64,000 nucleotides of DNA, from the NCBI GenBank assembly GCA_013239625.1, contig MU053594.1:646355-710354 (forward strand), given 5' to 3'. Of this stretch, positions 18,187-50,620 are shown piece after piece; position 1 is the stretch's first letter; every line of letters begins with the position of its first letter. Made by a program: the position numbers and the translations under genes. The notes under the pieces are model-generated. The model was not told where the DNA came from. It made no database searches and saw nothing but the letters and a program-made list of their open reading frames with translations. Source of the DNA: Lama guanicoe. Its lineage: Eukaryota.

Positions 18187-18471
18187 ATGGATCCACTGAA
18201 CCTGTCCTGGTACGATGACGTTCGGGGGAGCTGGAACTGGAGCCGGCCCTTCAACGGGTCCGAGGGGAAGGCTGACAGGCCCCAGTACAACTACTACGCC
18301 ATGCTGCTCACCCTCCTCATCTTCGTCATCGTCTTTGGCAACGTGCTGGTGTGCATGGCCGTGTCCCGCGAGAAGGCACTACAGACCACCACCAACTACC
18401 TGATCGTCAGCCTGGCCGTGGCCGACCTCCTGGTGGCCACGCTCGTCATGCCCTGGGTGGTCTACCTGGAG
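18187..18471 (+). CDS. DRD2: Dopamine D2 receptor, exon 2 (first coding exon; exon starts at 18156): N-terminus, TM1, TM2
   Basis: ATG at 18187 gives [11 protein letters not shown]...[45 protein letters not shown]. Acceptor AG at 18154-18155, donor GTAGGT at 18472. 285 coding nt. Confidence 0.99.
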
Positions 18472-21400: not shown

Positions 21401-22830
21401 TACCTGGTACTTTTTACATAATCATCTCGTCTTTTTGACGAGCTAGACATCCCCTTCCAAGGCAGCTCAGGAGAGAGCATAGGACGTGCTGCCCAAAGAG
21501 CTTGCTGGGAACTCCAGCCCTGCTGCACACGAGCTGGGTGTGCCCTCTGAGTTTCATTCCCTCATCCCGGAGCGGACATAAGCAACCCCTTCCTTCACAG
21601 GCTCTAAGAACAATAAACGAGGTAAAGTATGCGCTCACAGTAGATGCTTTAGAAACAGTGGCCACCAACACACTATCTTGAGCCATTGATTCAACCGCCC
21701 CCTAACTGCATTTTAGAACAACTGTTCCTAGGACCTCGGAGGAAGCCCCCCCTTCTTCTGTGCTCCAGGAAGGCTTCTGGGGACAGGGATTGAGAGCTCC
21801 CTAAAGACAGGGACTATGTCAGGAATGTTTACCACTGTACCTAAGAGTCTAGGACAGAGCTGGACACAAAGTAAGTTGCTCGATAGGTGTCTGAAGGAAA
21901 GAAGGAAGGCAGGGGAGAGGGAAGGGAGCAGGGAGGATGGGGAAGAAAGCCCTGATATCTCAGACCTAGATCCCCAGGGCGATGAAAGCCGCTCAGAAAT
22001 GCTCGTCCCAGGAGGTCATCAAGGTGGAGCACAGACCAGGTGGCCCTGGGACCCTTCCCGTGGCCCCCTGAAGGTAGACTCTGTTGATGCCAGGGGAGCC
22101 AGCCCCTTCCATCCCCTCCACCACCATGCCCCGCCCTGCCCTGCCCCCCGACATCCAGTTCCTGCCCGCCTGGCCAGAGCTTGGACACCCTTGCCCCATG
22201 TAAGCCCCAGAGAGGGCAGCATCACACAATAAGCGTCCTGTCTGCTGGGAAAAGCCGCTGTTTCCTCCACGCAGAGCTCATCACTGCACTTAAATGCCAC
22301 CGATTGTTTTTATGTCTGAGAACAGCGAAGGGGGCAGTGCTGAGAACGAACATTATCACTTGGCCGGCCGCCATGCTGTGCCCCGCAGAGTGGGTACCGC
22401 GCTGCTCCGGTCACCGGGAGGGGCTGTCTTGCTCCTCTTTTCTCCGATATATTGTCACCCAAGTTGTATCTCCCTGTCCTGACTCTGTCCTTGGGGTGGA
22501 GCCTGGTCTAAACTCCCATGGTTGCTGGGGCCAGCCTGCTGTGCGAGTGTGCGTGCCTGTGTGCGTAAGCAGGAGGTGTGGGGGTATGGGTGTGCACGGG
22601 GCGGGGGGATGAGTGTGTGTGTTTGTGGGGAGAGGGGTGCAAAACGCCCTTGCTGGGAGCCAGACTCCTCGTCTTCCATCGAACCTGAGGTGCACCGTCG
22701 CACACCTCCCCCAGCGCGTTCTTTTCTTCCTGAAGATCTAGCCGAGGTTTTCCTTCTTTCGTTCTCCAGGTGTCACAAGGAGCAGAAATGTCTTCCCTGT
22801 TTCCTCATCACTGTCATCACCATTGCTCTT

Positions 22831-23013
22831 TTTTTTTTAATATTTTATTTTGTTTGTAGGTTTTTGGGGGTTTTTTTGGTTTTGGGATTTTTTGGGGTGG
22901 AGGAGGTAATTTGGTTTATTTATTTAGTTATTTTAATGGAGGTACTGGGGATTGAACCCAGAGCCTCGTGCATGCTAAGCATGTGCTCTAACCACTGGGC
23001 ATACCCTCCCCTC
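22831..23013 (-). mobile_element. Vic-1-type SINE in DRD2 intron 2
   Basis: Same tRNA-like head and A-rich tail. 14-bp TSD tcaccattgctctt (22817-22830) / tcaccattgttctt (23014-23027). Confidence 0.92.
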
Positions 23014-23505
23014 TCACCATTGTTCTTAATAGATACTTACTCGCCTACTCTGTGCCACACCCCACCCTGGGCACTGAAGGAGTGGCCTGACTCTCCCAGA
23101 AACCTGGGCTAGGGTGGGTTCAGACACTGAGCTAAAAGGCAGTGAGCGAGTCACCACACTTTTCTGAGGCTCAGTTTCCTCACTGGTAGCATGGGGATCG
23201 TAAGGTGTCCACACAAAGGTTTTAAGGATGAGAGTTCAAAGCTGAGGCACTTGTAAAGGTGGGTCATTTTTCTTCTAGCACACTTCTTGGCACAAAGTGG
23301 CCTCGTGTGGAGGAGAGACGGCTAGGGCAAAGGCTTCAGACACCCTTGGGCACAACTCCCCATTGCTGCCCCCCTCCCCCAGCCGGAGATCCACAAGCCC
23401 CCCACCGAGCCCATGGCCCGATCTGCCCCGGGGGACTGAGCCACTGCGCCGCTCTCAAGCTAATCTCCCCTCTGCTGCCCACCCTTTATGTTGCTTCGTC
23501 CCCAG

Positions 23506-23615
23506 GTGGTGGGTGAGTGGAAATTCAGCAGGATTCACTGTGACATCTTTGTCACTCTGGATGTCATGATGTGCACAGCAAGCATCCTGAACCTGTGTGC
23601 CATTAGCATTGACAG
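23506..23615 (+). CDS. DRD2: DRD2 exon 3 (ECL1, TM3 with the amine-binding Asp, start of DRY)
   Basis: cccag|[52 protein letters not shown]. Donor GTGAG. 110 nt. Confidence 0.99.
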
Positions 23616-24644
23616 GTGAGCCCAGCCAGGGTGGGAGAGGTGACCCAGACCATTCACCTCTGGGGCTGCCCCACCTCTCCTTCAGGGTCAGGCTCGGTCT
23701 ACTATGCCATATGGCGGGTTGTGTGCCTGTGAGCCCACGTGTTTGTGTGTGTAAGGGTGCGCATGCGCACATGTGTGTGGGAGTGTGTGTCTGGCTGGGA
23801 GAGGTCAGACCCCCTAAAGGAGGCTGTCTTGCAGACAGTGATGCTACCAAGAGTACCCAGACAGTGACTAGCAAGGAAGAGAAAGCACTAAATGTAACCG
23901 AGCCCTACCTCTGTCACTGCTTACTTACGTGACCCTGGGCAGATTGTGGAAGTTCTCAGAACGCTAGTCTCATTGTCTAGAAACCCTGGCCACCTGCGGC
24001 CCTAGTGTCTGGTTGTGCGTTTCATGTCCAGCACAGGGCGCACGGCCAAGGGGGCCCAGGCCGTGCTCGCCTTGCTGAGCTGTATCCTCGGAGCCTGTTA
24101 CTGATTCGCACACACAGGTACGTGGGCTCCCAGAGGCTCTGGCTCCCCTCGCAGGGTTCTTGGAAGATGGAACGAGCTAACATCTGAGAAGTGCTGGATG
24201 GAGGGATGTGGGGTGCCATGCACAATGACGGCTACTGAATGAGACCTAACCCTTGCTCTGAGGGGCCTGGCTACCAATCCACCAACAAACACTTTTACCC
24301 TCCATGGGGCCAGCAGACATGCAGGGGGTACAGTTTCAAAGGTGCCAAGACCCAGGCCGTGGCTCCTCAAAAAGCCTGAAGTCCAAGCAGGGCAACTGGA
24401 GTAATAGGTCTGGTCCAGGATTAAATGGTAGATGGTCAGTCATTGAGCACTTGACTGGACATCACCAACTGTCCTCACTGTCTGAGTCGGGGACCAGAGA
24501 GAGGGTTGATTCAGAGTAGACAGGAGGTGGATTGACTGTCTGTCCCCCCATAGTGGGGTGTCTCTGGTGTGTGCACGTTGTTTAGTGAGCGGTCCCTCAG
24601 CCCGCATCCCAGACTCAGGGTCCCTGCACCCCCCGCCTGCGCAG

Positions 24645-24781
24645 GTACACAGCTGTGGCCATGCCCATGCTCTACAACACGCGCTATAGCTCCAAGCGCA
24701 GAGTCACTGTCATGATCACCATCGTCTGGGTCCTGTCCTTCACCATCTCCTGCCCACTGCTCTTTGGACTCAACAACACAG
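24645..24781 (+). CDS. DRD2: DRD2 exon 4 (ICL2, TM4)
   Basis: gcag|[52 protein letters not shown]. Donor GTGAGT. 137 nt. Confidence 0.99.
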
Positions 24782-25945
24782 GTGAGTCCAGCCTCTGTCT
24801 GTCTGGGGCCCTGCCCCCGCCCCTGTGCAGGACCCTGAGGGAGCTGAACCCTGGCGCAGACGCCGGTGGTGGCCCATTCACCACCCAGGACTGAGGCCAG
24901 GCTGGGCTTCCTGGGCCAAGCCCAACTCCTTGCACCTGGTAGAGTCAGACAGGAACAATGGCCCAGGCCGTGATGGAGTTGTGTGAGGAGTGGGGATAGT
25001 GATTCAGGAGGGTACCTGGACGTTTTCAACTTTGTTTATTAAATGGAAGCAGACCAGGAAGCCTTGTAAACCACATGTGTGTGCATGTCTGTGTGTGTGC
25101 ACCCACGAGAGGAGGCCGCTGGGCCTCCATCACCCCTGACAATGGTGTCTGTGTAATGAAGCTACAGCCCCAGGGCTGGGCAAACCCAGGCCAGGCTAGA
25201 TCTACCTGGAGCAGGAAAGGTAGAAACAAACAGAAGGCTAGCTGCCCGCGGCTGGTCCTGTGCGAAGCAGTCAGGAGCATCTCAGACAGAGGAGGCCCAG
25301 AGTGGGGGGTGGAGCTTGTCCTCATCTGGGAGGTGAGATGATACTGGGGACCATTACCGGATAGGATGCAAGGAAGCCTTGAAAGCATGTGGTTCAAAAT
25401 CTAAGTGTTATGGGAATTCCAAGAGGCAGGAATAGGGCTAACCGAGCTAGGATTATCTGGGAAGAGCCTGGGAGAGAGGACAAACACCTGCTAGATGTGA
25501 AAGGGAAATTGGAAACACAGTGGATCACAGGTGAGTTCAGCAAACAGGACCAAGTCATCTTGTTCCTAAAGTTAAAAGGTGTCAGACCTCCGCGCAATAC
25601 ACAAGAAAGGCTCAAGTGATGGTTTGCTCTTTTTAAATAATTTTCTTCCATCTTTTTTTTTCGGGAAACCGTGGCTCCCTGTGTTTACTCCTGGATGACA
25701 AAACTCGTGATGAAGTTATGAGGTGATAGTAAGGGAAACCCTTGGAAGCAGTCATCACAGCTTAGCTTTTTGCTCATGCTTGTTTCTAATACTTTGATTT
25801 ACGCTGTGTATTTATTACATCTAATATTTCCAGGCTGCCTTAGGCGTCTAGTCATGTTTTCTGTAACGCTGCTTCTTGGCCGGGAAGGCACCGTGGCCCC
25901 CGGGGGCCTGCTGACCTCCCACCCCTGGGGCTCTCCTCCCCCCAG

Positions 25946-26136
25946 ACCAGAACGAGTGCATCATCGCCAACCCCGCCTTCGTGGTCTACTCCTCCATCGT
26001 CTCCTTCTACGTGCCCTTCATCGTCACCCTGCTGGTCTACATCAAAATCTACATCGTCCTCCGCAGGCGGCGGAAGCGGGTCAACACCAAGCGCAGCAGC
26101 CGGGCATTCAGGGCCAACCTGAAGGCCCCGCTCAAG
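25946..26136 (+). CDS. DRD2: DRD2 exon 5 (ECL2, TM5, start of ICL3)
   Basis: cccag|[78 protein letters not shown]. Weak donor GTCCCG. 191 nt. Confidence 0.98.
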
Positions 26137-26649
26137 GTCCCGAGATCCTTCTCCCCCAACGTCCCTGTCTAACCATGACCCGGGGGCTCTCCGTGCTCGG
26201 TGGGGGCCTGGGACACTGCAGCCACCGGGGTCCAGGCTGGAGGAGCTCCGAGGAGCTGAGCGCAGGCAGATTCCGAAGGCTCGGACATCAGTGGGCGACG
26301 TGAACCTCCAGGAGTGGGAGGTTGGGAAGGGGGCGGAGACCACCTGGGAGGAGAGCTTTGTCTGAACGCAGCAGCTCTTGGTGCCTTCGTGGCTCTTCTC
26401 TCCCTCTTTCCTTCCTCCTCCTTTCCTCCCTCTGACCCTTCTGTCTCCTTTTCCATCCCTCTGACGCCTCCATCCCATCTCCTTTATTTCCCATGCTTTC
26501 CCCTCCTCTCTGTGCGTACCTCCTTCTTCCTCACCTGCTCCTGCCCACTTCCCTCCTCTGCCTCTCTTTCATCTCCATGCTGACGTCTTGTGACTGCTCC
26601 CCTCTGCTCAGCCCTGCCTGAGGAAGATGGTAGGTGGGCAGGGAAGGAA

Positions 26650-26880
26650 CAAGAGCTTGGGGCTTAGAGACAAAAAGTTCCAATCCTGGCACCACCACTT
26701 TTTTTTGCTGTGTGACCTTGGGCAAGTTGCTTAACTTCTCTGAGCCTCAGCTTCCTCATCTGCTAAATGTGAATCATAATACCGATCTCACAGGGTGGTC
26801 TTGAGGATTCAGTGGGAGAGGGATGGAGTGTGCCTAGAAGGGTGCCAGGTCCCCAGCAGGTGCCACATAAAAGTTATGGC
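26650..26880 (+). mobile_element. MIR SINE in DRD2 intron 5
   Basis: gctgtgtgaccttgggcaagttgcttaacttctctgagcctcagcttcctcatctg core. Confidence 0.85.
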
Positions 26881-27078
26881 CCTTTCGTTCCCTGTCCAGC
26901 TCACTTCTTCCCATCACAGTACCAACCTTCACCCTCACCTCAATTGCCCCTCAGGCCCCAGCCTCCTAAGCTCTGCCCTTCTCTGAGCTCCAGTGCCCAG
27001 TCAGACTACCCCACATTGGATTTCTGTCCCCCTTGCCCCATCTCCCTGTTATGACCCATGTGCTGGCTCACTCCACAG

Positions 27079-27165
27079 GGCAACTGCACTCACCCTGAGG
27101 ACATGAGACTCTGCACCGTTATCATGAAGTCTAATGGCAGTTTCCCAGTGAACAGGCGGAGAGTG
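27079..27165 (+). CDS. DRD2: DRD2 exon 6, alternatively spliced 87-nt cassette (included in D2L, skipped in D2S)
   Basis: ccacag|GGC AAC TGC: GNCTHPEDMRLCTVIMKSNGSFPVNRRRV (29 aa). Donor GTAAGT. Phase 0 at both ends. Confidence 0.99.
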
Positions 27166-27429
27166 GTAAGTGTTCAGGTCAGGGACTCCAGGGCCCTGTC
27201 TTTCTGCCTCTTGGGAAACCCACCCGCGGTGATTCTCAGAGACCTCACCAGCTGGTCAAAGGGATAAGCCCCTCCCAGGATCCCCTGCTTTGCCTCAGCT
27301 GAGGCCAGACTCACCATGCACACACATAAGCAGGCATGGAGCAAGACTGTTCATTCCTGCAAGGCACAGAGAGGCACCCCTAGTGCAAGGAAAGGTCTGG
27401 GAGAAAGGACTCGGCCATAACCACATAAG

Positions 27430-27660
27430 CAAAACCATAACAATGGCGATGCCCATTAATCACAAACCTACCATCTTCCTGTTAGCTCGTCAAATCCTCA
27501 CAGCGACCCTGAGAGGTAAGTCTTGTTGCTCCCACCCGTCTTCATTCCGCAGAAGAGGAAACAGAGGCTCAGAGAGGTTGGGTAACACACCCAGGGCTAA
27601 ACAGTTGGTGAGAGTTAATATGGGAGCCCAGACCTCAGTGACTCTGAAACCCATGCCCGT
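27430..27660 (-). mobile_element. MIR SINE in DRD2 intron 6
   Basis: aatcctcacagcgaccctgagaggta...agaggaaacagaggctcagagaggttgggtaacacacccaggg. Confidence 0.75.
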
Positions 27661-28766
27661 GTTCTTCCCACTGGCATACGCTGCCTTACAGACAGGCAGG
27701 TTCTGGGGCGGGAGGGAGGCTGGGTGCTGGGGGAGGAGCGAGCGGAACAGCTGGGGCGGGGGTGCCCACAGTAAAGGGCAACCTGTAAGTGGAGCCCAGA
27801 AACGCAGAATCACAGCAGACCCCAAGTTTCCCAGTAATAGTAGCACCAGGGTCCAAGCAGCAGGTGTCCCATCCCCCGACTGGGCAGAAGATGGGCCCAG
27901 GAACGCACAGAGGGCGGCACACCGAGTCCAGGTCAGGCGTCTTCAGGAAGCAGGAACCCTGCTAGTCACCTGCACATTCACTGTTCACCAGCAAAGGCAG
28001 GACTCCACGGAACCATGTGAGATGGATGCCAAAACGGGGACTCAGGATCGGGGCACTTCCACACACAGTGAGGCTGCATTTCAGAAGCTCAAGCTTGAGA
28101 CCCCCAAGGCCTGGAGCAAGGGAGCATGAGGAATGCTCTGGGAGCCCAGGAGGACGTGGGCTCCTCCAGATCAGCCCAGCAGGGGGGTGAGGGGCTCAGG
28201 GGTTCGCCCTTCCACACCTGCATCAGTCTACCGGGAGAAACAGCACACCTGTGCTGTGCTGGTGCAGGAGGCTCGTCAGCCTGGCAGCCCCTGTTTCAGC
28301 CTGGCAAGGAGAACGGGGGTGCCCTCTATGCAGGAACATGAGTTCCTGGAGGCAGGAACGGAACATCAATCAGTAACTTATTCACAGCCGCTAGCTTGGC
28401 ACCTGGCACTCAGTAAGTGTTGTTCAGTTAATAAAACAGAAGTACCTTGGTACGAAGCCACCACAGGATGGTCGTGGGGTCATCGAGGCTGCCTGAGGAT
28501 TGCTCTGCAAAGAGGGCCGGGTGACCTGGCAAGCTGGGATGGTCGTAGGTCCTAGGTACCCAGATAGCTCCTACTTCCCAGTGATCGTCCTCCTTTCCTC
28601 TCTGGCAGAGTGACCCGGTGGTGTCTGCAGGCATCTCCACACAGGCATAGGGAAGGGCTGGGTGGGCCTGGGTGGGGCCAGGTGAGGCCAGGTAGGTCAG
28701 GTGAGGTTGGGGGGTTGATGGCCAAGAACTTGCCTGGCTTTACCCAGAGCTCTCTGCCTCGTGCAG

Positions 28767-29094
28767 GAGGCTGCCCGCCGAGCCCAGGAACTGGAGATGG
28801 AGATGCTTTCCAGCACCAGCCCACCCGAGAGGACCCGGTACAGCCCCATCCCACCCAGCCACCACCAGCTGACCCTTCCTGACCCATCCCACCATGGCCT
28901 CCACAGCACTCCTGACAGCCCCGCCAAACCAGAGAAGAACGGGCATGCCAAAGACCACCCCAAGATTGCCAGGATCTTTGAGATCCAGTCCATGCCCAAT
29001 GGCAAAACCCGGACCTCCCTCAAGACCATGAGCCGCAGGAAGCTCTCCCAGCAGAAGGAGAAGAAAGCCACTCAGATGCTCGCCATTGTTCTCG
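28767..29094 (+). CDS. DRD2: DRD2 exon 7 (ICL3, start of TM6)
   Basis: gtgcag|[43 protein letters not shown]...[15 protein letters not shown]. Donor GTGAGT. 328 nt. Confidence 0.99.
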
Positions 29095-30743
29095 GTGAGT
29101 CAGCCCAGGCCACCAGCCACAGCCGGGCTTTGCCCAACCCTGGCTGAGGAGAGGAGGTCCCACTGTCTGCCATCCCCCCAAACCATGGCTGGTGGGTCGC
29201 AGGACTGGTACTTTTCAGGCACAGGCTAAGCCCATGGACCTACCTGCTTAGATAGATTCTATAATTATGCTCATTTCACAGATGGGGAAACAGTTTTGGA
29301 ACTTGATCAAGGAGGACGCACGATTTAAACTCAGGCAGTTTGACTCCAGAATCTGAACTTGACCAGTCTCCCATCATGACCCCCAGAACCTCATGACCCT
29401 GGGCAAGTGACTTTGCTCTCTTGTCTCCCCATCGGTAGAGCAGGTTACCTCTTAGGGTTCTGGTCATCAAAATGATACACAGTGTGAAAGCATTTTACAG
29501 ACTGTAAGCAGTACGTGCCAGTGTTGTCATTGCGATTTCTGTCAATTTTGACATTTCTGAGAAATTGGGGAATTCACTTGACTTGATCGAGACGCAGTGG
29601 GGCCAGAGGGTGTTCCTGTGAACAAGGAAAGGGGCTGTGAGGGGGGCCCCATCTAAATGGGGGTGAGTGAGGCGAGGCTCTCAAATAGAAGTCCCTTAGA
29701 AAACAGATCACAAAGGTGAAAAGTCAAGGGCTGGACTGATACGGGTAGTGGGGACAGGAGGGACTGTAGCACCCACGGTAGTTGTGACGCCAGTCCACAC
29801 TCACCATCCCTGTGACCGCCCGACAGTCCTGTGACATGAAAAGTTCAGGTGTTACTATTCCGGTTTTACAAATGAGGACTTGCAGGCTTAGCAGGTTGGA
29901 GGACTACCCGAGACCAAGTGCAGAGGGTGGCAGAGTGGGGCTGGAGCCAGGCCCTCTGCTCCCGTCATTGGCGGGGGGTGGGGGGTGTCTCTGCTCCATA
30001 GCCCTGCCTTTCCCAGCATCGCTCGGTCCCTGGGGACTCCCGTGTGCCTGTGCGACATTCTGTGCACACAGTGTCTCCACACCGAGGGTCCAGCCGAGCA
30101 GGCGGGCCCGGGTTTGACAGGCAGAGCGATGGGCGGGAGGTCGGAGTTGTGACAGCAGGTGTCCCCGGGCAGGGATTAGCAAAGGTGTCACCGACGGGGC
30201 TAGGGAAGTTGGGGAAAGGCGCAGCAGAAGCCTGGCCATCTGGGGACTTTGACAGACTAGAGTTTGGATCTCAGCTTTGCCAGTGAGTGGAGTGGCCTTG
30301 TGGGCATCACAGAGCCTCCGTTTCCTGGTACCTCATGCCAGGAGGACTAAGCGGGGTGGGTTTCGAGCTCCCCTTCTGGCCCAGATTGCGCGTTCCCCAC
30401 TCCCAACTTCTGCGGAAGGTGTTTTCCAAGCTGGCCAGAAAGGAGAGAAGATATTTCCATTTCTACCGGCTGCCCTGGTCAGGATGTTAATCTTTTGGAT
30501 TTGTTTTCAAGCCCGTTATCCTTTCCTAGGAGATGGGCATTGTTACACGCGCTTGACAGAGGAGGAGAATGAGGGAGGTGAGGTGACTCGCAAAGGAGTA
30601 TCAGAGGCAGGTCCTTCCAAGACCCCAGGTCCCCCTGAGGTGCTCTTGTTGCCTTGGTAACGGGGCGGGGCCTGCGGCACATACCTCTAGCTCTGCCCCT
30701 CCCCAACCCCAGAGGCCAGCCTGACAGCAGTCCTCTCCCCCAG

Positions 30744-30937
30744 GCGTCTTCATCATCTGCTGGCTGCCCTTCTTCATCACCCACATCCTGAACATACACT
30801 GTGACTGCAGCATCCCGCCCGTCCTGTACAGCGCCTTCACGTGGCTTGGCTACGTCAACAGCGCCGTGAACCCCATCATCTACACGACCTTCAACATCGA
30901 GTTCCGCAAGGCCTTCCTGAAGATCCTACACTGCTGA
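30744..30937 (+). CDS. DRD2: DRD2 exon 8 coding part (TM6 CWLP, TM7 NPIIY, C-terminal Cys, stop)
   Basis: cccag|[75 protein letters not shown]. The seven exons sum to 1332 nt, i.e. 443 aa plus stop. Confidence 0.99.
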
Positions 30938-38887: not shown

Positions 38888-40192
38888 CTAAACTTCCGTC
38901 TGGGCTCCAGGCTCAGCCCTGCCCAGAATGGCTAGCGAGGGATCCTTGTCCTCTAGGAAGGTGACAATGCCCTGCTTTTGGCTCCGGAGGGCCAGCTGCA
39001 GGGGGGTGCAATCCACCCCATCCTGGGTGTCCAGCCAGGCACCGGCCTTAATCAGCACTCTGAGGATGGCCATATTGCCTGTGAGGGCAGCCAGGTGGGC
39101 AGGTGTCCAGCCCACTTTGTTGCTGGCATGCACGTCTGCCTGGCGCTTCAGGAGGTTGGTGACACACAGGAAGGCACCGCTCTGGACCGCCAGGTGAATA
39201 GGTGTCCAGCCTGACTGCTCGGCAGCATTGGGGTCAGCCCCACATTGCAGGAGTACTGACACCACCCCCTCTGCCCCATGGCGAACAGCCAGGTGCAGGG
39301 GGGTTCCAGCTCATGCCTCCGGGAGCCCCCACGTCCGCGCGGCTCTCAGCCAGCAGGCGGATGATCTCCAGGTGGCCCTTGTAGGCTGCTAGATGCAGGG
39401 CTGTCCAGCCCTGCCGGGTCGGCAGCTCAAGGCTGGCCCCGTACCTGAGCAGCATCTTGCAGATGAGGTGTTTGCTCCTGGCAGCCGCGATGTGCAGCGG
39501 GCCGCAGCCGCTCTGGTCAAGGGCATCGGGGGCCGTCCCACTCTTTAACAAGTGTTGGATGGCCCTCACTTTGCCTTGCTCCACCGCCAGGTGCAGTGGT
39601 GTCCTCAGGTTTCTCTGCCCAGCATCCAGCTCGGCCCCCTGCACCGTCAGCAGCTTAACCAGCCTGACGTGGCTGAAGTAGGCAGCCACATGGAGCGGGG
39701 TCTTGCCCTCAGCTTCACGCAGGTTGGGGTCAGCCTGACGGGAGACCAGAAGCCGTGACACGTTCTCAAAGTTGTTCTGCGCAGCCAGGTGGAGTGGGGT
39801 CCACCCCTCATGCTCCTGGGCGTCCACACGGGCCCCGTGGTCCGGGAGCAGACGAGCGGTGCGGTCATCCCCATTCTGGGCCGCAAAGTGCAGCGGGGCC
39901 CAGCCGTCCTCATCCTCCAGGTTGGCGTCGGCGCCGTGCTCCAGGAGCAGGGCGCAGAGGTCGGGCTGCTGATCCTGGGCGGCGATGAGGAGGGGCGTGT
40001 AGCCGCAGGCTGTCTGGCAGTCCACATCGACCTCGTGGGCCAGCAGCAGCCTCACCTGCTCCAGGCTGCCCTGCGCCACCAGGAAGTGGAGAGGGGTGAC
40101 CTTGTTCTGGCATAAATGCAGCTGCTTATCACTTGGGACCAGGCTCTCACTGTCTGAGAGCTGCAGGACCTGCTTCAAGTAGTCTGCTAAGT
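38888..40192 (-). pseudogene. ANKK1: ANKK1 exon 8 (about 12 ankyrin repeats), +1 frameshift in repeat 9
   Basis: The ankyrin array is split over ORFs 39234..40178 and 38888..39265. TGG AAC CCC CCT is seen where TGG ACC CCC CTG (WTPL) is expected, at 39298-39305. Orthologous stop TAG at 38888-38890. Confidence 0.97.
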
Positions 40193-40654
40193 CTGCTGGG
40201 AGGAAGATGAGATTGAGAAAAGGACCTCTGACCTATCCAAAGGTCATCCTGGCCATCCCCCTGCCTCCCGGAAGTACCATCCAGAACCAAGACATAAGGA
40301 GGGCAATGTCTTTCTCGATACCCCAGATCTCTACGTGGGCCCCACTGTCCTAGAGAGCTGAGTCTGGCATCTTTACGTACAGATGAGGAAGAAAGAGGCT
40401 GGGGTGCAAATTCTGACTCCACCCCTTAGCATCATGTGTCCTCTGCCTCTTTAAGCCCCTAGATCCTGATCTGTAAAGGGCTCACGAATAATGCCCACCT
40501 CACGCCACCACTGGGAGGACAAATCACGTAGGTGAGAACCTCCAGAGGAGCGCTTGGCACAAAGTAAATAAATGCAAGTTGAAGATCAATTTGTGGTGAC
40601 GCTTTGGGATCTGAACTCCTCCTGAGGTCATTAAGGATCCACTTCCTCCGGCTC

Positions 40655-40840
40655 TTCCCAGTGGTACATTAGAATTAAAAGCAACAATCTCCAAAACAGA
40701 ACAACAAACAAACGAAAATCACTGCCCAGGCCAAACCCCCAGAGACTCTGATTGAATTTTTCTAGGGTGGCTCAGGCAACATGTATTTTTTTCACTTCCC
40801 AAGTAATTCTAATTTCGCAGCCGTGGTTGGAAACTGATGC
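40655..40840. mobile_element. MER5A-like hAT element
   Basis: cccccagagactctgattgaat...atgtatttttttcacttcccaagtaattctaat...ggttggaaactgatg. Confidence 0.7.
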
Positions 40841-41101
40841 TCCCCGATCCCTCAGGCCGGGAAGGGAGGAGTCCGGCCTCAAAAGAACACAGACCTGAAG
40901 GGGAAGCAAAGCCAGGACCCCCAAGGGCGTGTGCATTTCTGGAACACAGGGCCAAGTGCTGGGAAAGGGACACCTGGACTCCTGATTTGTGATGGGCCTG
41001 GGGAAGAGGGCGGGCCAGCGAGGCTGCGGAAAGGATAGGGGTTGATTCCACTTTCTCCTCGCTGTGGGTTCTCTGATTCCAGCTGTGTGCTCGGGACTCA
41101 C

Positions 41102-41138
41102 CGCTGTCTGTCAGCTCCTGACCGACCTCCTCACCGAC
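41102..41138 (-). pseudogene. ANKK1: ANKK1 exon 7
   Basis: cccag|VGEEVGQELTDS G|GTGAGT. 37 nt. Confidence 0.9.
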
Positions 41139-41798
41139 CTGGGGAGGCGGAAGCAGATGTGGAGGGGAGACCAGGTGGGCAGGGTAGCTCTGGTCTGTGC
41201 CGTCCTCCACACCTCCCCTCTCTCCGGCACTCTCTGCCACCTGTCAGGACTCCCAGCCCACCCCATCCTCGGAGACCCTCTCCTCTCTCACCTCTGCCAC
41301 CAGCTGTGTCTAGAGGAAAACCCTGCGCAGGAGATACCCTCCCAGAAAGAGGGGGCCCAGGGCCTTGAGTTCCCCACAGGCCACAGGGAAGGCAGGGGGG
41401 CTCCTTCAGTTTAGTTGGGAGCCACACGCTAGCCCATGGCTGGCCCGCAGGTGAGGCTATGGACCGGCGAGCAGGGATGATGCTCGCTGACACCCACGGT
41501 GGGAGAGCCTGAGGGAGCCCGGGAGAGCCGCGGTCTCCCTCCGCAGGACCCGCTCTGTTTCATCCCACACATGTAAGCGAAGGCATGTCCTTCTCAGAGG
41601 CTCTCGGCTACCACCAGCCCTTAGACCACCTTTGAGCAAATCAGGAAAAGGTGTCCCCGAGTGGCTGCCTGGCTTGGCCCGCGGAGGCTGAACCGGCTCC
41701 GGTCCCCACCTGCCCCTCGGCCATGCGGCCTGCGAGGAGGGCACGCCCGTGCGCGCATCCTCAGCGCCTGCCAGAGAGCGGGCGCCGCCCCCACTCAC

Positions 41799-41917
41799 CT
41801 GCCGGGGCCCGCGCAGGCGCCGTGTGCAGGACACCTTCCTGGCCAGGGCCTCGCTCTCCGGGTCGGCCACAGCGCTCTGGAGCAGGGACAGCAGCATGTC
41901 TGTCTCGATTGTGATGT
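41799..41917 (-). pseudogene. ANKK1: ANKK1 exon 6
   Basis: gcag|AC ATC ACA: DITIETDMLLSLLQSAVADPESEALARKVSCTRRLRGPRQ|GTGAGT. 119 nt. Confidence 0.95.
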
Positions 41918-42590
41918 CTGCTCCACGAAACAGAGAGAGAGCAAAAGAAGTGACAGGCTGGCCAGCAGTTCCCTCCCCGTTTTAAATACGCTAACATGTC
42001 CTGGGTCCTCCATCCCAAAGCCCATCCCGGGGCTCGGGGCCATCCGCACATGCGCACCAGAAGGGAAGCGAGCTGGGTCCCAGCCTTGGCTCAGTGGGGC
42101 CACATCTGGCAAGTCGTCGACCCTTTGAGGGTCAGACCTTTTCAATAGAATGAGGGGGCAGGGCTAGGCGATCTCTAAGACGCTCACGTTTACACGTATA
42201 TGTGCGTTTACATAATCCCCGAAGGAGGGGATGACCTTAGGGTCCATCCATCCTGTGATCTCACGGTCTGGGAGCATTTCACAGTGAGGACACTGCAGCT
42301 AACTGGAGACCCAGAAGCAGCAGAGCCAGGCCCAGATGCCTTCGGAAAACGAGGGTTTTCTCCTCTACCTCCCAGAGGGGTCTACACTAACCCGAAGAGC
42401 CTGGACTGCAGTTCTCTGGCCCCACGGGCCATCCCCCTGCACTGTGGTGCAGAATCTGCCCCAGTGCCATCAGGGCCCTCCCTGCAGAGCTCTCAGGAGT
42501 GGCTTGGGGCTTCAGTCATCTCTCCAGGCCCACCAAGATCCCTACCCCACCCCCTTCCCCAGTCCTTGTGTAGGCCAGGCTGATGAAAAC

Positions 42591-42745
42591 CTGAAAACCA
42601 AGGCCTCTTCTTGGGGTCCTGGTCCCAGCAGTGCCTCATGAGGTCCACCACCTGCTGGACTTCACCCGGCCACTCATCGGAGGCAGGCTGCGGGGATGCC
42701 GCGCACCTGCGGCCACTCGGATGATAATGGTCATCATGTTGAAGC
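42591..42745 (-). pseudogene. ANKK1: ANKK1 exon 5 (subdomains X-XI), frameshifted
   Basis: acag|GFNMMTIIIRVAAGAR in one frame and SPQPASDEWPGEVQQVVDLMRHCWDQDPKKRPWFS in another. 155 nt, not a multiple of 3 although both ends are phase 1. Confidence 0.95.
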
Positions 42746-43282
42746 CTGTGACGGGAAGCCCAGGCTGTACGGTGCTGGGGGACAGGGGCGGAGGGGCTGG
42801 GCAGGAGGCTGGGGCTCTGAGGATCCTGACAGGGCAGGGCACACAGCAGGGGCTTCATAAATGCACGGTGAGTTAAGGGTTAAACTACAGGCCGACCTGA
42901 GGTTCAGACTTAAGCAGCTGGGTCTCTGGTCCAGCTCCAGCCCCTCCCAGGCCACGCCGGGCCACGCCCCTCGCTGCCAGCCTTTGCTGTCCCAAGGCGG
43001 CAGGACTGAGCAGCTGGACTAGTTTACTTTGAACTTCACTAGGTTATCCAAGTTCCCTGATAATCTGTTTACCTGGCACCTGGGTGGCAGGGCTGGGGGT
43101 GGAAGAGGCAGGAAAGAGCACTTGGAAGCCAAGGAATTAGAGGCAGAAAGCGTGGCCTGGGCTGAGTTTTGTCCTGCCTTTCACTGTCACATGAGCTCTA
43201 GGAAGTAAAGGGGAGGAAGGATGGGGGGGGGGGGGGGGACCCTTCCAGGACCCCACCTGCCACTGCCACCATCACCTGTTAC

Positions 43283-43332
43283 CTGAGCACGGTTTCTTCT
43301 GCGTGAGGAGCTCCCTGATGACAATCCCAAAG
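43283..43332 (-). pseudogene. ANKK1: ANKK1 exon 4 (subdomain IX)
   Basis: tgcag|C TTT GGG: SFGIVIRELLTQKKPCS G|GTAAC. 50 nt. W>R and Y>C at conserved positions. Confidence 0.95.
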
Positions 43333-43596
43333 CTGCATACAGGGGACAGTAACCCTGAGTGACTTTCTTGGATATCCACGGTCACCCCAGCCAGGGGGGT
43401 CCCACGGACCACACAATCCCAGGTTAAAGCCTCTCCAGCCAGAGCCGCCCTCCATCCCTCCTCCTCCCACGTGGGCAGGGTGGGGCCAGACCTCATCCCT
43501 GTCCTGCCCTGCCTTCTGGGCCGGTGAAGTCCAGGCAGAGGGTTGACAACAAGCTACTTCCTGGGTGTGTGGCAGGGAGCCCAGCCTCCTCCTCAC

Positions 43597-43748
43597 CTGT
43601 ACACATCGTATTTGGGCCCCGGGCCCTTGTTAGTCTCCAGGAACATCTCAGGGGGGATGTAGCTCAGTGTGCCCTGCAGAGCTGACCTCTTGATGTATTG
43701 TATCCGGGTCGACTGTTCCATCCACTTGGACAGGCCGAAGTCTGAAAC
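43597..43748 (-). pseudogene. ANKK1: ANKK1 exon 3 (DFG, activation loop), open frame
   Basis: cccag|VSDFGLSKWMEQSTRIQYIKRSALQGTLSYIPPEMFLETNKGPGPKYDVY|GTGAG. 152 nt. Confidence 0.97.
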
Positions 43749-44189
43749 CTGGGAGGAAGCCAGAGGTGGCGATGGGGGTGGGGCAAGACAGTCTGGCCTC
43801 CAGAAAACTGCCTGGACTTCTCATCCCTGCCCTGTCTTCATTTCCAGTCTAGTGTCTCCACTGAGAGCATGAGCTCTCTCCTGGGGCTGCCACATACGAC
43901 ACAATGAACGTGGACAAGTTAGTTATCTTCTCAGAGCCTCAATTGCCTCACCTATAAAATGGAAAAATATGGGTACTTAGGTCCTAGTGCTACTATGAAC
44001 ATGAAATGAGGAAACAGGCAAAAAGCACTCAGAACCGTGCCTGGTGTAGCACGTGGTAGGTGCAGCCATTACCCAGAGGACTGTGGAGACAGCTGCCAGC
44101 TTCGGTGAGCTTCCGTTCACCCCACTGCCACGAGCCCTGAAGCACTTACACCATGTCTGTTATCCCGCACTTTGATTATATCCATTGAT

Positions 44190-44580
44190 TCATTCAGACA
44201 CTGACTGACAATTCACTGAGTGCCAACTAGGCCAGGCACTGAGGACAGGTCTTTGCACCTATGGCTCTCCTAAGTGCTTATTCAAATATAGTCACTAATG
44301 AAAAAGTTTCACAAATGGCTATACACTTACAATCGGGGTTAGCCACGTGGAGATACAGAGGGACAATGACGGTGTATAACAGGGGCTTGTAGGGGTGGAT
44401 CAGGGAAAACCTCCCTGAGGAGGTGCTGTTTAAGCTGAGAGCTGAAAGATGAGTAGGCATTTGCTAGGGGGAGTGGGGGAACACTGTTCTTGGCAGTGAG
44501 AACAGAATGTGCAAAGGTCCTGGGGCAGAAATAAAAGTGTGACGTGTTTTATAAGAACTGAAAAAATGGCCATTGTGATC
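44190..44580 (-). mobile_element. L2 fragment
   Basis: cactgagtgccaactaggccaggcactg...cagggaaaacctccctgaggaggtg...ctgagagctgaaagatgagtagg...tgtgcaaaggtcctgggg. Confidence 0.7.
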
Positions 44581-44888
44581 TTTTTAAAGAATCATCTCAT
44601 CCTTTACATGCATCCTCGTTTGAAGCAAAGAACGGGACAGACTGGGGTTATTCTACCCACTCTGGAAATGAAAGACTGAGATCCAAAGAGGTTTATTGCA
44701 GGCATCCTGATACCCAGTTTCATGCACCAAATTCCAATCTGCTTTAGGTGTGATCCCTGCCTGTAGTATTTGTCCATGAAGGGAGCTGCTTAAAACCCTT
44801 GACAGGTCAGTCAGGCGGGTAGATAATCTTGCTCATCGGGAGAAGACTCTGGAGTAAAAGGGGCAGAGAGGTTCACCAGGGACCTTAC

Positions 44889-45183
44889 CTTGACATGCAT
44901 GTGGCTGTCCAGGAGGATGTTGCCTGGCTTGAGGTCCAGGTGGAGCAGAGGTGGCTTAATGCTGTGGAGGAAGTTCATGGCCAGGCTGGTCTCATGGATG
45001 ATGCGGAACTTGAGCTGCCAGCAGAGGCTGTGGGTGGGCAGCGTCTTCTCCAGGGAGCCATTGGCCATGAACTCCATCACAATACCCAGGGGCTGCTTGC
45101 ATACCCCATAGATGGCCACGATGTGCTGAAACTTGATCTTCTCCATTTTGGCTGCTTCTTCAATGAGGCAGTTCACCTCGGAG
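44889..45183 (-). pseudogene. ANKK1: ANKK1 exon 2 (kinase subdomains III-VIb), open frame
   Basis: atag|[53 protein letters not shown]...[23 protein letters not shown]. 295 nt. Confidence 0.97.
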
Positions 45184-46284
45184 CTATGGAGGGGCAGGAG
45201 CACGAGATGGAAGGAGGTGACCCTTTAATTACAAGTGCAACTAGCAGAACACACAAACTAGGCTTGCTGCCAGGCTGTGCGACCCAGAGAAGCCTCGGGA
45301 GCTTGCAAGGCAGTGGAGGAGGAAAGAGGCATGAAAGGATGCTCAGGGGATGCCCAGATGAGGGTCCAGATGGCCCCAGCAACGAGTCAGCAAGTAGATG
45401 AATCTGCAAATTTAAGAGGGAGCCCATTCTATAGAAGTGGCCACAAAAAGCCTACCATTTATTCTGGCTACTTGTCTGTAAGTCTGTCTCCCCCCAGGAG
45501 ATCGCAAGCCCCTGGAGAACCAATGGCATGCTTCCTACTTCTGTTTTAAAATATCATTTATTGCCATTTTGATTATGAAAGTAATACATATATCTTGTAG
45601 AAAAATCTAGGGAATAGAAAAGAAAGTTACATCTTCAGTAATCCAACCTTCCAGAGCTGGCCTCTGTTCGTCACTTAGTATATTCTTTCCCAACACATTT
45701 CAATACATTTTCTCCCTCCCTTTCATTCCTTTCTTCTCTCCCCCTCGCCATCACATAGTGTGGGCTGTTTTATGACCTGCTGTTCCCTGTTAGTGGAGCA
45801 TCCTACGTCCTTATTCTCCCAAAGCGAGCTCTGTAGTGGCTGCGTGGTATTCCACTTTAGAGATGAACTTTAATTATCCATCTTTGTCCTCCCCACAGCA
45901 CATGGCCATGCACAGCACAACGCATCCTTGTGGAACTGAACAGAAGTCAAGACTTACGGGAAAGCCTTACAAAATAAGCATTTGCAAACCTTTCACTCCT
46001 TTCACTATACCTGCCCACGGAACAGTAAATATGCAAATTGTTAGGGGTTGCTCAGGGACTGCGGGGATGAAGGTTAAGGAGAAATGACATTTTTAAAAAG
46101 CAAAGTATTTGCAAAGCTGCGTTGGCCCTGCAGTCAGAGGCTGCTGGAAATGTGCTCGCAGGACGTCCCTGGGAAGCCAGCCAGAGATTCTTAACCTCTA
46201 GGAAAAAACCCCTGCTCTCCCTCACATCTGGAAGGGTTGGCTAGTCCAGGTTTCTGCTGTTCTCTTATTTACTTCTCTACTGTT

Positions 46285-46440
46285 TATTTTTTTTAAATAC
46301 AGTTGAGTTTGTTTTATTTATTTTTTACTTTTGGGGAGTAGGTAATTAGGTTTATTTATTTTTTAATGGAGGTACTGGGGATTGAACTCAGGACCTCATG
46401 CATGCTAAGCACACGCTGTACCACTGAGCTATACCCCCAT
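46285..46440 (-). mobile_element. Vic-1-type SINE in ANKK1 intron 1
   Basis: ggaggtactggggattgaactcaggacctcatgcatgctaagcacacgctgtaccactgagctatacccc. Degenerate TSD tttacttctctactgtt / tttactttctttaccgtt. Confidence 0.9.
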
Positions 46441-46753
46441 CTTTTACTTTCTTTACCGTTCAAGGGATCTCCCTCTCCCTCTGATATTTTTTTTAAATAT
46501 TTTTAAATCTTGTCCTTTTGAGTTCACAGGAACTAGAAGACCTGTGTCATGAAGTAGAAAAAGCAAGGGATCTGGGATTGCACTGCTCTGATTTCAAATT
46601 CCATTTTCACCACTTATTTTCTGCATGACCCTGAACAAGCAAACTTGCCGGGCCTCAGTTTCTTAACTGTAAAATGGGAACAACAGTAATTTGCACAATT
46701 AACCCTTGACACCCAGACTTCTTGAAAACACTTGCTGCATCCGTTGTCTCTCT

Positions 46754-47164
46754 NNNNNNNNNNNNNNNNNNNNNNNNNNNNNNNNNNNNNNNNNNNNNNN
46801 NNNNNNNNNNNNNNNNNNNNNNNNNNNNNNNNNNNNNNNNNNNNNNNNNNNNNNNNNNNNNNNNNNNNNNNNNNNNNNNNNNNNNNNNNNNNNNNNNNNN
46901 NNNNNNNNNNNNNNNNNNNNNNNNNNNNNNNNNNNNNNNNNNNNNNNNNNNNNNNNNNNNNNNNNNNNNNNNNNNNNNNNNNNNNNNNNNNNNNNNNNNN
47001 NNNNNNNNNNNNNNNNNNNNNNNNNNNNNNNNNNNNNNNNNNNNNNNNNNNNNNNNNNNNNNNNNNNNNNNNNNNNNNNNNNNNNNNNNNNNNNNNNNNN
47101 NNNNNNNNNNNNNNNNNNNNNNNNNNNNNNNNNNNNNNNNNNNNNNNNNNNNNNNNNNNNNNNN
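46754..47164. other. Assembly gap (411 N)
   Basis: Run of N. Confidence 1.
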
Positions 47165-47199
47165 AAAAACACTTTGCATCCGTTGTCTCTCTCTTTTCC

Positions 47200-49040
47200 T
47201 CATCTCCCACCACCCCCTTCCATCCAGTTTCTGGTCTTAATACTCCACTGAGCAGCTGTTAGTAAAGTCACCAATGACCCCCACTGTAGCCTACTAGCAA
47301 TTTCCAGTTCTCGGCTTAGGGTCAGTTCATCTGTGGTTCCTTCGCGGGTTCCCATTCTGTTCCTGGACCAGCTGGCCCAGTCCCAGGCCCTCTTCTTTCC
47401 TCCCCTCACTCTGTGCCATCTCTAGGCAATCTCAGAACTTCCAACTGGGTATTCAGCATTTAATGCATCTAAAGCTGAACTCTCCATTCTCCCCTCAATC
47501 CTGCTCCTCCCTCAGCCTTCTGCATCCCAGTGAGTGGGGCCTACATCCTTCTAGCCTTCAAAGGTCCTGATGTTATCCTTAATTTCTCCCTTCCTCTCCT
47601 TCCCTTGGCGCATCCTATCAGCTCCACCTTCAAAATATAGCAAGAATCCAACCACACATCACCACCTCTGTCCACTGGCATCTTGGCCCCAGCCTCCCAA
47701 TTGGCTTCTTTACTTCTGTCTCTTTTCCTTCACTGGCAGCCAGAGTGATACTCTTAAAATACCAATCAGCGCATGTCACTGTTCTGCTCAGGACCACCCA
47801 GTGTTTCTCTTCTCATTCACAGTAAGAGCCGAAGGTCTGACGCTGGCTTATTCGGCCCTGCCTGTCCTGCTCCTAGGTGTAGATCACTGATCTCGTCCCC
47901 TGCTCATCACTCCTTCCCCGACTCTCTTCCTGCTGGAAGGACTTCTAGTTCTTCCTCCATCATGTCAAGGCTATTCCCACCTCAGGGCCTTTGCACATGC
48001 TCTTCCCTCTGCCTAGACCACTAAGAGAGCTTAAGAGAGCCACATGGCTTGCTCTTTCTTTGCTTCAAATCTCTATTCTCAAATGGTACCTAGTTAGTAA
48101 GGACTTCAAGGCTATAGAAAATAGCAACCCTATTCCAACTCCAACCATCCTTATCCCTCCCAGAAGAGGAGGAGGAAGAAGATGAGGACAAGGAGGAGGA
48201 AGAGGATGGTGAGAAGGAAGAGTCTGATGATGAAAAAGATGGAGGAGAAGACGTAGAAAGGAAAGATGATGAAGATGAAGTTAGGGAAGAGGAAGAATTT
48301 GGACGTGATGGAGAAGTTGATGAAGATGAAGATGATGAGGATGAAGGGGAGGAATAAAGTGGGAAAGGTGAAAAGAGGAAGAAACAGATGATGAAAGACA
48401 GATGATTAAGACCCCAACTAACCTGCAAAAAAACCACACCTTGCTTTATTGGTGTTTATTGGCTGGACTGCTCAAATAGATTTGGTAGCAGTGTTTTGGT
48501 TTTTGTTTTTATAAGGTAGCTCTGGTACAAACTCCAGGACACCCACGCAGCTGAAGAGCCAAAGAATAGCGGTTGTGACATTCTGCCTTCCTCCATTTAG
48601 TCCCTCTTGGAAATCCACCAGCAAGCTTGGGGACTTCACCCCCCAAAAGTTAGAAGCTTTGTTAAGTTTTCGTGTAAGACTCTTGCTTTAGCCTGGAGAG
48701 CTGTGACTGGTAAGTCGGTCATCTGTGGCTACCAGTTACACTGAAATTGTAACAGCATTTTTTACTTTCTGGACAACAGAGAAGCATTGTAAATAAAATC
48801 TTGCCATTTGGAGAGAGGAAAGCCCACAAATTAGTATTTCCAGATCAAATGTTTCTTTGGAAGGTCAGACTACTCAACTCTCCTCTTAGGAATTTTAATC
48901 AATGAAAATGTCAAATGGTTGTAAGGGATATGGATAAAAATATTTGTTTGTTGGTTGATTTGTTTGTTGTCTGTCTTCCTCCATTAGATTATAAACTCCA
49001 TGAGGGAAGGAACTTTGCTTTGTTCACTCAGCGCTTAGAA
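47200..49040 (+). mobile_element. L2 element split by the ANP32B retrocopy
   Basis: aaagtcaccaatgacccc...aagctgaactc...cctcagggcctttgcacatgctcttccctctgcct before 48160, and tgtctgtcttcctccattagattataaactccatgaggg after about 48960. Confidence 0.75.
48163..48810 (+). pseudogene. ANP32B: 5'-truncated processed pseudogene of ANP32B (acidic C-terminal tail plus 3'UTR)
   Basis: Translates EEEEEEDEDK...EEEEFGRDGEVDEDEDDEDEGEE*SGKGEKRK..TDDE..DD*. It runs directly into 3'UTR-like sequence (gagccaaagaatag, ctgtggctaccagttacactga, ttgtaaataaaatc) remembered from ANP32B mRNA. No introns, with an internal stop and small indels. Confidence 0.88.
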
Positions 49041-49599
49041 TGATTGAACGTCATCGATGTCCTAGCTTCAGTGACCACCTAAAACAAATGACTCACACAT
49101 TTCTGTATTGTTAGCTCAGTGCTTTACTCTGAAGCCTCCTGGAAAGTCCTTATCGGCTGTTTAAAGGCGCCTAAAACGCCACATGTACAAAAGTGAACTC
49201 ACAGTCTTTCTCTCCAAACCTGGGCCTTTTTTCATAGTCTATTTATTAATTATCAACAACCTCATTGAATGAACATGAACACCAGTTACGTGCCAGGCAC
49301 TGAGGACAGAGCAGTGAACAAAACAGAGCCAGATCCTGCTCTCAAGAAATAGACATTCTAGTGGACCCTTTGTTTCTCTGGGCCAGCCAGACACCAAGTA
49401 TCAGCAAATGTGGTGGGATTGAGACTGGAGCCTCATCTCAATGGGAAGGCAGAGTAGAAGGAAAAAGGTAGTAGGAGGGAAAAGGAAGCACGCCAAGGAG
49501 TGGCCATCGTGCGTGTGACAGGACTTGGGAGGCGTCAGAGAGAAAAACAAGGACAGAGACTTCAGCATCCCAGGCTCGACCTGCCAGCAGGGCCTGTGT

Positions 49600-50620
49600 G
49601 AGGGCCGGCGAGTGGCTGGACAGGCTCTCAGGCCAGCAGACGTCTCCTGCAGCCGCGGCAGCCTGCGATGGCTGCCCCGGGGCCACATCGGCCAGCCAGG
49701 GGAAGGGTGAGTGCGGTTCCCCCGGGGTCACTGAGCATCCCTGAGCCCAGGGGCACAGCCCCTCAGCAAGCCCGGCGCTGCCTGGCCTGCGAGTCTGGGG
49801 CGGGGTAGAGGGTGGCAGAAGGCCTTAGGGAACAGTCCTACCAGGCTGACCCCCAGGAGGAAGGAGGAGCTGGAAAATAGGAGGCGGGACCAGTCTGGGA
49901 GGTCGGATGGAACAAAGGCATCTCTGCAGGGTAGTTCCTGCTCACCTTTGACCTCGGTGGATTTCACAAACAGGTTTGATTCCACACACAGGGCCAAGGG
50001 TATTTCAGAGACGGAAACAGAGCTGTGCCTGGGGAGCTCAGGCCACTGGACAGAGTGTAGAAACTCTGAGAGGACGATCCTCAGCCTCAACCCGGCCGCC
50101 CCTCCCTCAGAAGCTTCCCAGGCTTCGGTTTCCCCTCCATGAAAGGAGTGGGGAGGTCCTGGTGGCGTCAGGCAGGAGGCAGGGGGGCACTTGATGGCGT
50201 GCTCTGTCCGCCAGCGCTTGGGCCGGGCCTGGAACACCTGGCCGAAGCCGCCGCTCGCCACTCGGCGCCAGTCGCCCTCGAAGTCGTCGCGGGTGAAGAC
50301 GGGGAGGCTGCCCAGCCGCTGCTCCACGCTCGCGGCCCCTCCAGGCTCCGCGCGCTCCCTGCGCGGCTGCAGCCGCCGCTTCCTGCTCCGCAGGTCCCAG
50401 GAGGGTGGGGATGGGGAGGCAGGCGGCCCTCCCTCCTTCCGCGCAAGGAGGAGCGGCTCCTGCCCCGCAGGGCCGGGGAAAACCCAACCTGAGCCCTGAG
50501 GCCCCTGGCAGCGATGGGGGCTTGGGGCTGGAAGAGGGAACATTCCTCCACAGCATCCCAAGAGACCCCGCCCCGCCCCGGCATCCTCCCTCAGTCTCAG
50601 CCCGCGATTTCCAACCCCCC
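49600..50620. promoter_or_regulatory. CpG island / promoter over ANKK1 exon 1
   Basis: Visibly CpG-dense and GC-rich, with tandem GC boxes (ccccgccccgcccc, about 50566-50579) upstream of exon 1. Confidence 0.75.
50159..50342 (-). pseudogene. ANKK1: ANKK1 exon 1 (disrupted)
   Basis: EQRLGSLPVFTRDDFEGDWRRVASGGFGQVFQARPKRWRTEHAIKC. No ATG between 50159 and 50540. One base missing in the C-run after TGC (50182-50187). The donor reads AG|GACCT rather than AG|GT. Confidence 0.9.

Follow-up and report, generated by a model that had tools for sequence, protein, structure and literature searches.

A probable lineage-specific loss of ANKK1, beside an intact DRD2, in a camelid outside Camelus

Is ANKK1, the site of a human variant (TaqIA) that has long served as a 'DRD2' marker, still functional in the guanaco? 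The question is raised by a 64,000-nucleotide stretch of contig MU053594.1 (Lama guanicoe, assembly GCA_013239625.1, positions 646,355 to 710,354; hereafter the window), in which an eight-exon ANKK1 gene occupies positions 38888-50342 of the minus strand, and which a preliminary description, made from the letters alone, had taken to hold a lost ANKK1 next to an intact DRD2. We reason (with a probability of roughly 0.72) that ANKK1 is here a real unitary pseudogene, specific to a lineage of non-Camelus camelids. This is the best reading because the lesions are absent from the Camelus records that span their sites, no second copy was found, and the neighbouring and control genes are unshifted. 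The gene would have been disabled several times over: a microhomology-flanked deletion of ~17 nt would have taken the start codon, the exon-1 donor would have passed from GT to GA, and exons 1, 5 and 8 would each have been put out of frame by a 1-nt indel. With normal splicing, translation of the transcript would end at codon 63, within the N-lobe of the kinase, and the transcript would probably be cleared by nonsense-mediated decay. The five lesions, and an upstream ATG that bears on the first of them, are located as follows.

~50330..50337, minus strand: junction of the ~17-nt deletion, conserved initiator ATG lost (it falls between two GGCCGCG words, which permits no finer placement)
50182..50187, minus strand: C6 run one base short, a -1 frameshift in exon 1 (three-frame view)
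50157..50158, minus strand: exon-1 donor reading GA, not GT (splice table; CACCAG followed by GACCTCCC)
42698/42697, minus strand: -1 in exon 5 (CGG-C-ATCC against the expected CGG CCA TCC)
39305-39298, minus strand: +1 in exon 8, AA then C6 (TGGAACCCCCCTG)
50541..50543, minus strand: upstream ATG that shares the frame of the kinase, a possible N-terminal extension of 69 codons (three-frame view)

The loss of the start codon was deduced by comparing proteins, not by aligning DNA. Where the dromedary reads ...GAWRGRADPMAASVEQ / ...GAWRGRADPMAASVEQRLGS and the dog ADPMAAG, the window has no ATG: one of its frames runs ...GAWRGR/ERG (a continuation of the dromedary upstream open reading frame, ORF) and the other AEPGGAASVEQ, continuing as AASVEQRLGS. 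The claim that exon 1 and the ~200 nt upstream of it lack an ATG is literally true, as between 50337 and 50560 the only ATGs are those at 50556 and 50543 (with none from 50337 to 50542), but it is weakened by the second of these, which is in frame. Since that frame is also open, the start loss alone is not decisive. The other ATG (50554-50556) corresponds to the conserved start (MLWRNVP...) of the first dromedary RefSeq version (842 aa), and in the window the kinase is read in a different frame from it, as the length of the deletion is not divisible by three. The remaining four lesions were all recovered (in three-frame views and the splice table) as the preliminary description had given them. 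In exon 1 the window reads KCPPASC where KCPACLLPDATS is expected from the dromedary, the frame passing from KCP.. to CLLPDAT. The caveat that the indels sit in or beside homopolymers is appropriate for exons 1 and 8, both of which are hit at C6 runs, and does not apply to exon 5, where the context is non-repetitive and free of homopolymers.

That the locus is a true ANKK1 (RIPK5) orthologue is supported by several features. All eight exons were placed by tblastn with the dromedary, hippopotamus and human ANKK1 proteins. The main frame of exon 8 has its top match in Camelus dromedarius ANKK1 (92% identity), followed by the ANKK1 of many other mammals (78-88%), and the conceptual protein (its breaks written as X) has 710/761 aligned residues (93%) in common with the dromedary one. 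A Camelus genome would be expected to lie closer than this, and we take the animal to be most likely a South American camelid. A kinase domain is identified by the Pfam family PK_Tyr_Ser-Thr in exon 2 (E=9.6e-17), with the DFG motif also present, and the large last exon matches Ank_2 on both sides of its frameshift (E=8.7e-60 before it, E=1.3e-21 after it). Assignment to ANKK1 rather than to RIPK4 follows from the identities, which are 78-92% for named ANKK1 records and 37-60% for the RIPK4-like locus of the same genome. TTC12 lies upstream on the same strand and contig, while DRD2, on the plus strand, is placed tail to tail with ANKK1 and 8 kb past its stop, so that the whole forms the conserved TTC12-ANKK1-DRD2 block. 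The gene identities, the conserved order and the camelid origin proposed at the outset were thus borne out. The exons are given below.

50159..50336, minus strand: exon 1 remnant (kinase N-lobe, AIK lysine included), 73.6% GC (tblastn and three-frame view)
44889..45183, minus strand: exon 2 (kinase, HLDLKPGN intact), open, but holding the first premature stop (three-frame view; Pfam)
43597..43748, minus strand: exon 3 (DFG intact), open, AG/GT (three-frame view, splice table)
43283..43332, minus strand: exon 4, open, carrying W216R (IVIWE motif) and Y225C (three-frame view, alignment)
42591..42745, minus strand: exon 5, -1 frameshift and L245P (tblastn, three-frame view, alignment)
41799..41917, minus strand: exon 6, open, AG/GT (three-frame view, splice table)
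41102..41138, minus strand: exon 7, open, AG/GT (splice table)
38888..40195, minus strand: exon 8 (ankyrin repeats), +1 frameshift, stop TAG at 38890-38888 (tblastn, three-frame view, Pfam)

Spliced together these exons span 2294 nt, and in the reading as it stands the first stop is codon 63 (45175-45173, in exon 2). Canonical dinucleotides were found at 13/14 splice sites (AG at 7/7 acceptors and GT at 6/7 donors), which, together with the open frames of exons 2, 3, 4, 6 and 7, agrees with what had been said of the undamaged part of the gene.

The closest relatives for which proteins are available keep the gene. In the 90%-identity cluster to which the dromedary protein belongs there are five records from three species of Camelus, and wherever these cover the sites, the lesions of the window are absent from them: the two dromedary records that include exon 1 (P0122, P0123) retain the ATG and the end of the exon (MAASVEQ..KCPACLLPDATSS), and in 5/5 records the frame is continuous across the sites in exons 5 and 8 (..AGVRPSLQPASDEW.. 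and ..MSWTPLHLAA..). The Camelus orthologues (dromedary XP_031299563, 764 aa; C. bactrianus XP_010968502; C. ferus EPY86659) have the eight-exon layout and the neighbours of the window gene, from which they differ by keeping the ATG, the frame at the covered sites and an ORF of 764 aa, whereas the window copy bears five disabling lesions. Intact orthologues also occur in hippopotamus and many other mammals. Several features expected of a unitary pseudogene are seen at the guanaco locus, namely disabling lesions in the orthologue itself, the lack of another, working copy within the 2.05-Gb assembly, and relatives in which the gene is whole.

Protein-level selection was assessed in an alignment of the window protein with 38 full-length mammalian ANKK1 records (none marked 'LOW QUALITY'), hand-picked from the 120 best matches plus four cluster members. 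By parsimony, 25 replacements fell on the window lineage and 16 on that of the dromedary (p=0.21), with 41 common to the camelids and 10 ambiguous. Six of the window-specific changes (H40P, W216R, L448P, G505S, A551T, L663I) affect columns invariant in 36 outgroup mammals, W216R lying in the IVIWE motif of kinase subdomain IX; with Y225C and L245P, also present in the window protein, they substantiate the earlier remark that radical missense changes accompany the lesions. When unique changes at otherwise invariant columns were counted in common for all species, the window had 7, the dromedary 6, the hippopotamus 2, the horse 1 and the rhinoceros 0. As a share of all unique changes, those at invariant columns made up 7/29 in the window, while the figure for a set of 14 other mammals was 34/219 (p=0.28; the tests gave p=0.16 to 0.28), a pooled comparison from which Crocuta (25/78) had been dropped as an outlier. 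From these alignments, the protein data appear neither to confirm nor to refute relaxed selection on the window lineage, and Camelus ANKK1 may itself be weakly constrained despite its intact ORF (the difference being non-significant). The proposal that the loss was fairly recent finds no support, considering that there are four indels and a splice lesion and that the rate test is uninformative; this number of lesions within 2.3 kb suggests several million years of neutral decay (a rough figure, based on mammalian indel rates).

Two observations on the same alignment stand apart from the question of the loss. The spotted hyena record (P0030), with 25 unique changes at invariant columns among 78 singletons, lies far above the other species, which must be due either to a poor gene model or to decay of the gene. 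The column of the TaqIA variant (human Glu713, in exon 8 downstream of the frameshift) holds Lys in 30/39 proteins (window and Camelus included), Arg in six, Glu in two (human and dog) and Gln in one.

To judge whether the lesions could have arisen in the assembly, the neighbouring DRD2 and other genes served as controls. The coding region of DRD2 was indeed flawless (as had been described), with all introns GT-AG, and the best PDB match to its first coding exon, which aligns end to end, is 8tzq_R, a solved D2 receptor (E=3.5e-51).

18187..30937, plus strand: DRD2 coding region, seven exons, intact 1332 nt, GT-AG throughout
18187-18471, 23506-23615, 24645-24781, 25946-26136, 27079-27165, 28767-29094 and 30744-30937, plus strand: the seven DRD2 exons, which when spliced encode 443 aa

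No frameshift was found in TTC12 over ~20 exons (2157 nt), each of which gave one single-frame alignment against C. ferus, nor in a 426-codon RIPK4-like exon, nor in a 1214-codon exon with five homopolymer runs of at least 6. Altogether, four indels in 2295 nt of ANKK1 compare with 0 in the controls, which amount to ~8.4 kb of coding sequence in that assembly, and the probability that all four would fall in ANKK1 is ~0.002. Homopolymer runs of at least 6 number four in ANKK1, one in DRD2 and TTC12 together, and six in the controls in total. Among runs of at least 5, an indel was present in 2/8 in ANKK1, 0/7 in DRD2 and TTC12, and 0/13 in the long exon of locus L006, a comparison of low power.

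The most serious competing explanation is that the gene is intact in the animal and that the lesions are errors of assembly or consensus (homopolymer miscalls and a misassembled GC-rich exon 1), which we regard as unlikely, though by no means negligible. It would need five independent errors in 2.3 kb, when none occurred in the controls with their six long runs; the ~17-nt deletion, the GT to GA change and the exon-5 -1 are neither of the homopolymer type nor typical consensus errors; none of the five lesions has an N gap near it; and radical replacements at invariant sites go with them. A number of points nevertheless weigh against a real loss, and in part directly for this explanation. Two of the three frameshifts touch C6 runs, and three lesions fall in a first exon of 72-74% GC, a kind of sequence in which short-read assemblies are weakest. 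DRD2 and TTC12 are weak controls for homopolymer error because they contain a single long run against the four of ANKK1. The gene retains its catalytic motifs, nearly all of its splice sites and five open exons, it has acquired no nonsense substitution, and the ATG at 50543 offers an open, in-frame start. Its protein has not changed significantly faster than that of Camelus, and the changes at invariant columns number 5 on the dromedary lineage against the 6 of the window. Finally, all the evidence rests on one assembly, which is gapped (as had been noted: there are N gaps at 1547-1573 and at 46754-47164, the latter within ANKK1 intron 1). Sequencing runs (14 DNA runs under five organism labels) contain 0.81-0.94 of the sampled 31-mers of the locus, a measure too coarse for single bases; for RNA runs the shares were 0.05-0.20, and no weight is placed on them.

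The other explanations accept the lesions and differ in what they would mean. A null haplotype might be segregating in the species, in which case the loss would be polymorphic rather than lineage-wide; the examination of one assembly only leaves room for this, yet five lesions on one haplotype would imply a long neutral decay that is hard to square with a surviving functional allele, and public sets hold no annotated protein from close relatives, so that we consider such polymorphism distinctly improbable. In a collection of 5.8 billion proteins, no ANKK1 protein came near 100% identity to the window exons (at the lengths searched), although this absence is indirect evidence and might itself come from filtering or from the same fault in assembly. 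Among ORFs that would carry the exon-8 frameshift in assemblies of independent runs, none near 100% identity was found, in a search that was uninformative, and a scan of metagenomes for host-derived contigs returned one locus, which at 39% identity is unrelated. Even if the assembly may be incomplete, it is scarcely conceivable that the window holds a dead duplicate of an intact ANKK1 elsewhere in the genome: the only ANKK1 locus is the one in the conserved position, with TTC12 and DRD2 on either side, no second copy came up when the 2.05-Gb assembly (55,231 contigs) was searched in six frames, and the DNA of exon 1 and that of exon 5 each match only themselves in it. The next best locus is the RIPK4-like one, and RIPK4 (the closest paralogue) resembles ANKK1 in its kinase and ankyrin architecture but differs in its low identity, in its place on another contig and in being unbroken in the exons seen. 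It is also very improbable that a truncated or alternative product still comes from the locus. The upstream ATG at 50543 and its open frame would permit one, but a product begun there would meet the exon-1 -1 shift and stop at codon 63, and the shifts of exons 5 and 8 would remain. As for a cryptic donor, the only GT near the end of exon 1 (AA followed by GTGCCC) would keep the phase and delete the catalytic lysine, so it offers no rescue. Returning to the unitary pseudogene, we infer that the animal truly carries the lesions, that its lineage is fixed for them and that they date back several million years; that the lineage as a whole is a natural knockout is not established, resting as it does on one assembly.

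The loss would fit a pattern that is already published. Recurrent loss of RIPK5/ANKK1 in vertebrates has been reported, and in the sections of that paper covered here the protein is described as having no known function or interacting proteins (eLife 2025, PMC12119088). In those sections, the losses resemble that of the window in gene and in kind (lineage-specific loss), and differ from it in that the presence or absence of RefSeq proteins is scored, lesions are not described and no camelid is named in the text. The species list includes Vicugna pacos, and C. bactrianus is present in the RIPK5 accession column; in the portion of the accession table at hand, none of the first 18 of 27 listed 'Vicugna' cells stands in the RIPK5 column, and since the column has run out of entries by the row of the 17th cell, the remaining nine would also fall outside the RIPK5 entries. 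In the literature on ANKK1 with alpaca or camel (for camel, by title and abstract) we found no description of a camelid ANKK1 loss, and in that on ANKK1 and cattle no paper on the integrity of the cattle gene; among the papers listed for ANKK1 and pseudogenes, the eLife study was the only relevant one. An engineered null of the same gene has been made in mouse, and, going by the part of the report covered here, the Ankk1 knockout of the Lexicon screen was viable and had, in the screening cohort only, body fat at ~129% of the wild-type level, a result without independent replication according to the paper (PMC8409770); it differs from the loss in the window in being experimental, the latter being natural. 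The window case would add one lineage to a gene already known to have been lost repeatedly in vertebrates.

Some features of the locus are recorded here for completeness. At 54806-54877 (minus strand) a 24-residue match (79% identity) was found to the segment that joins TTC12 and ANKK1 in the fused C. ferus model EPY86659, and it may be the last TTC12 exon or an annotation artefact. Intron 1 of ANKK1 contains a purine-rich simple repeat (48090-48455) that reads as runs of Ser, Glu and Asp in several frames, and between 46001 and 48000 its GC content falls to 0.37 around a 411-nt N gap.

How far the decay may extend within the Artiodactyla can be addressed only tentatively. The public ruminant ANKK1 models (P0072, P0126, P0127, P0128 and P0132, from fallow deer (marked 'LOW QUALITY'), red deer, muntjac, sheep and wild yak) are fragmentary: exons are missing, introns are read through and motifs are damaged (DFG, for example, reads DFD in the two deer). 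No ruminant or pig record occurs among the 120 best matches to the kinase exon 2, in which birds and reptiles are present. Judged from these gene models, ANKK1 may also be decayed in ruminants. The cetacean records (P0031 and P0042; bottlenose dolphin and franciscana) stop early, at ...LQLALWS, ~30 residues before the usual C-terminus. In Camelus, changes at invariant columns number 5-6 against 0-2 in the hippopotamus, horse and rhinoceros, over longer branches in the latter (the difference being non-significant). It is possible, though we hold it to be rather doubtful, that ANKK1 is dispensable across much of the Artiodactyla, being dead in South American camelids, independently decayed in ruminants and drifting under weak constraint in Camelus.

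The weight of the case is moderate, given that recurrent RIPK5 loss has been published and that the lesions of the window are those of one assembly. Candidate-gene work on ANKK1 in camelids, and perhaps in ruminants, may be addressing a pseudogene. If the wider dispensability were true, llamas, alpacas and perhaps cattle would be ready natural knockouts for the effect of ANKK1 on DRD2 expression. A dead ANKK1 beside an intact DRD2, in a large, farmed and behaviourally studied mammal, would be a natural test of whether normal D2 receptor expression, or the control of body fat, depends on the ANKK1 protein.

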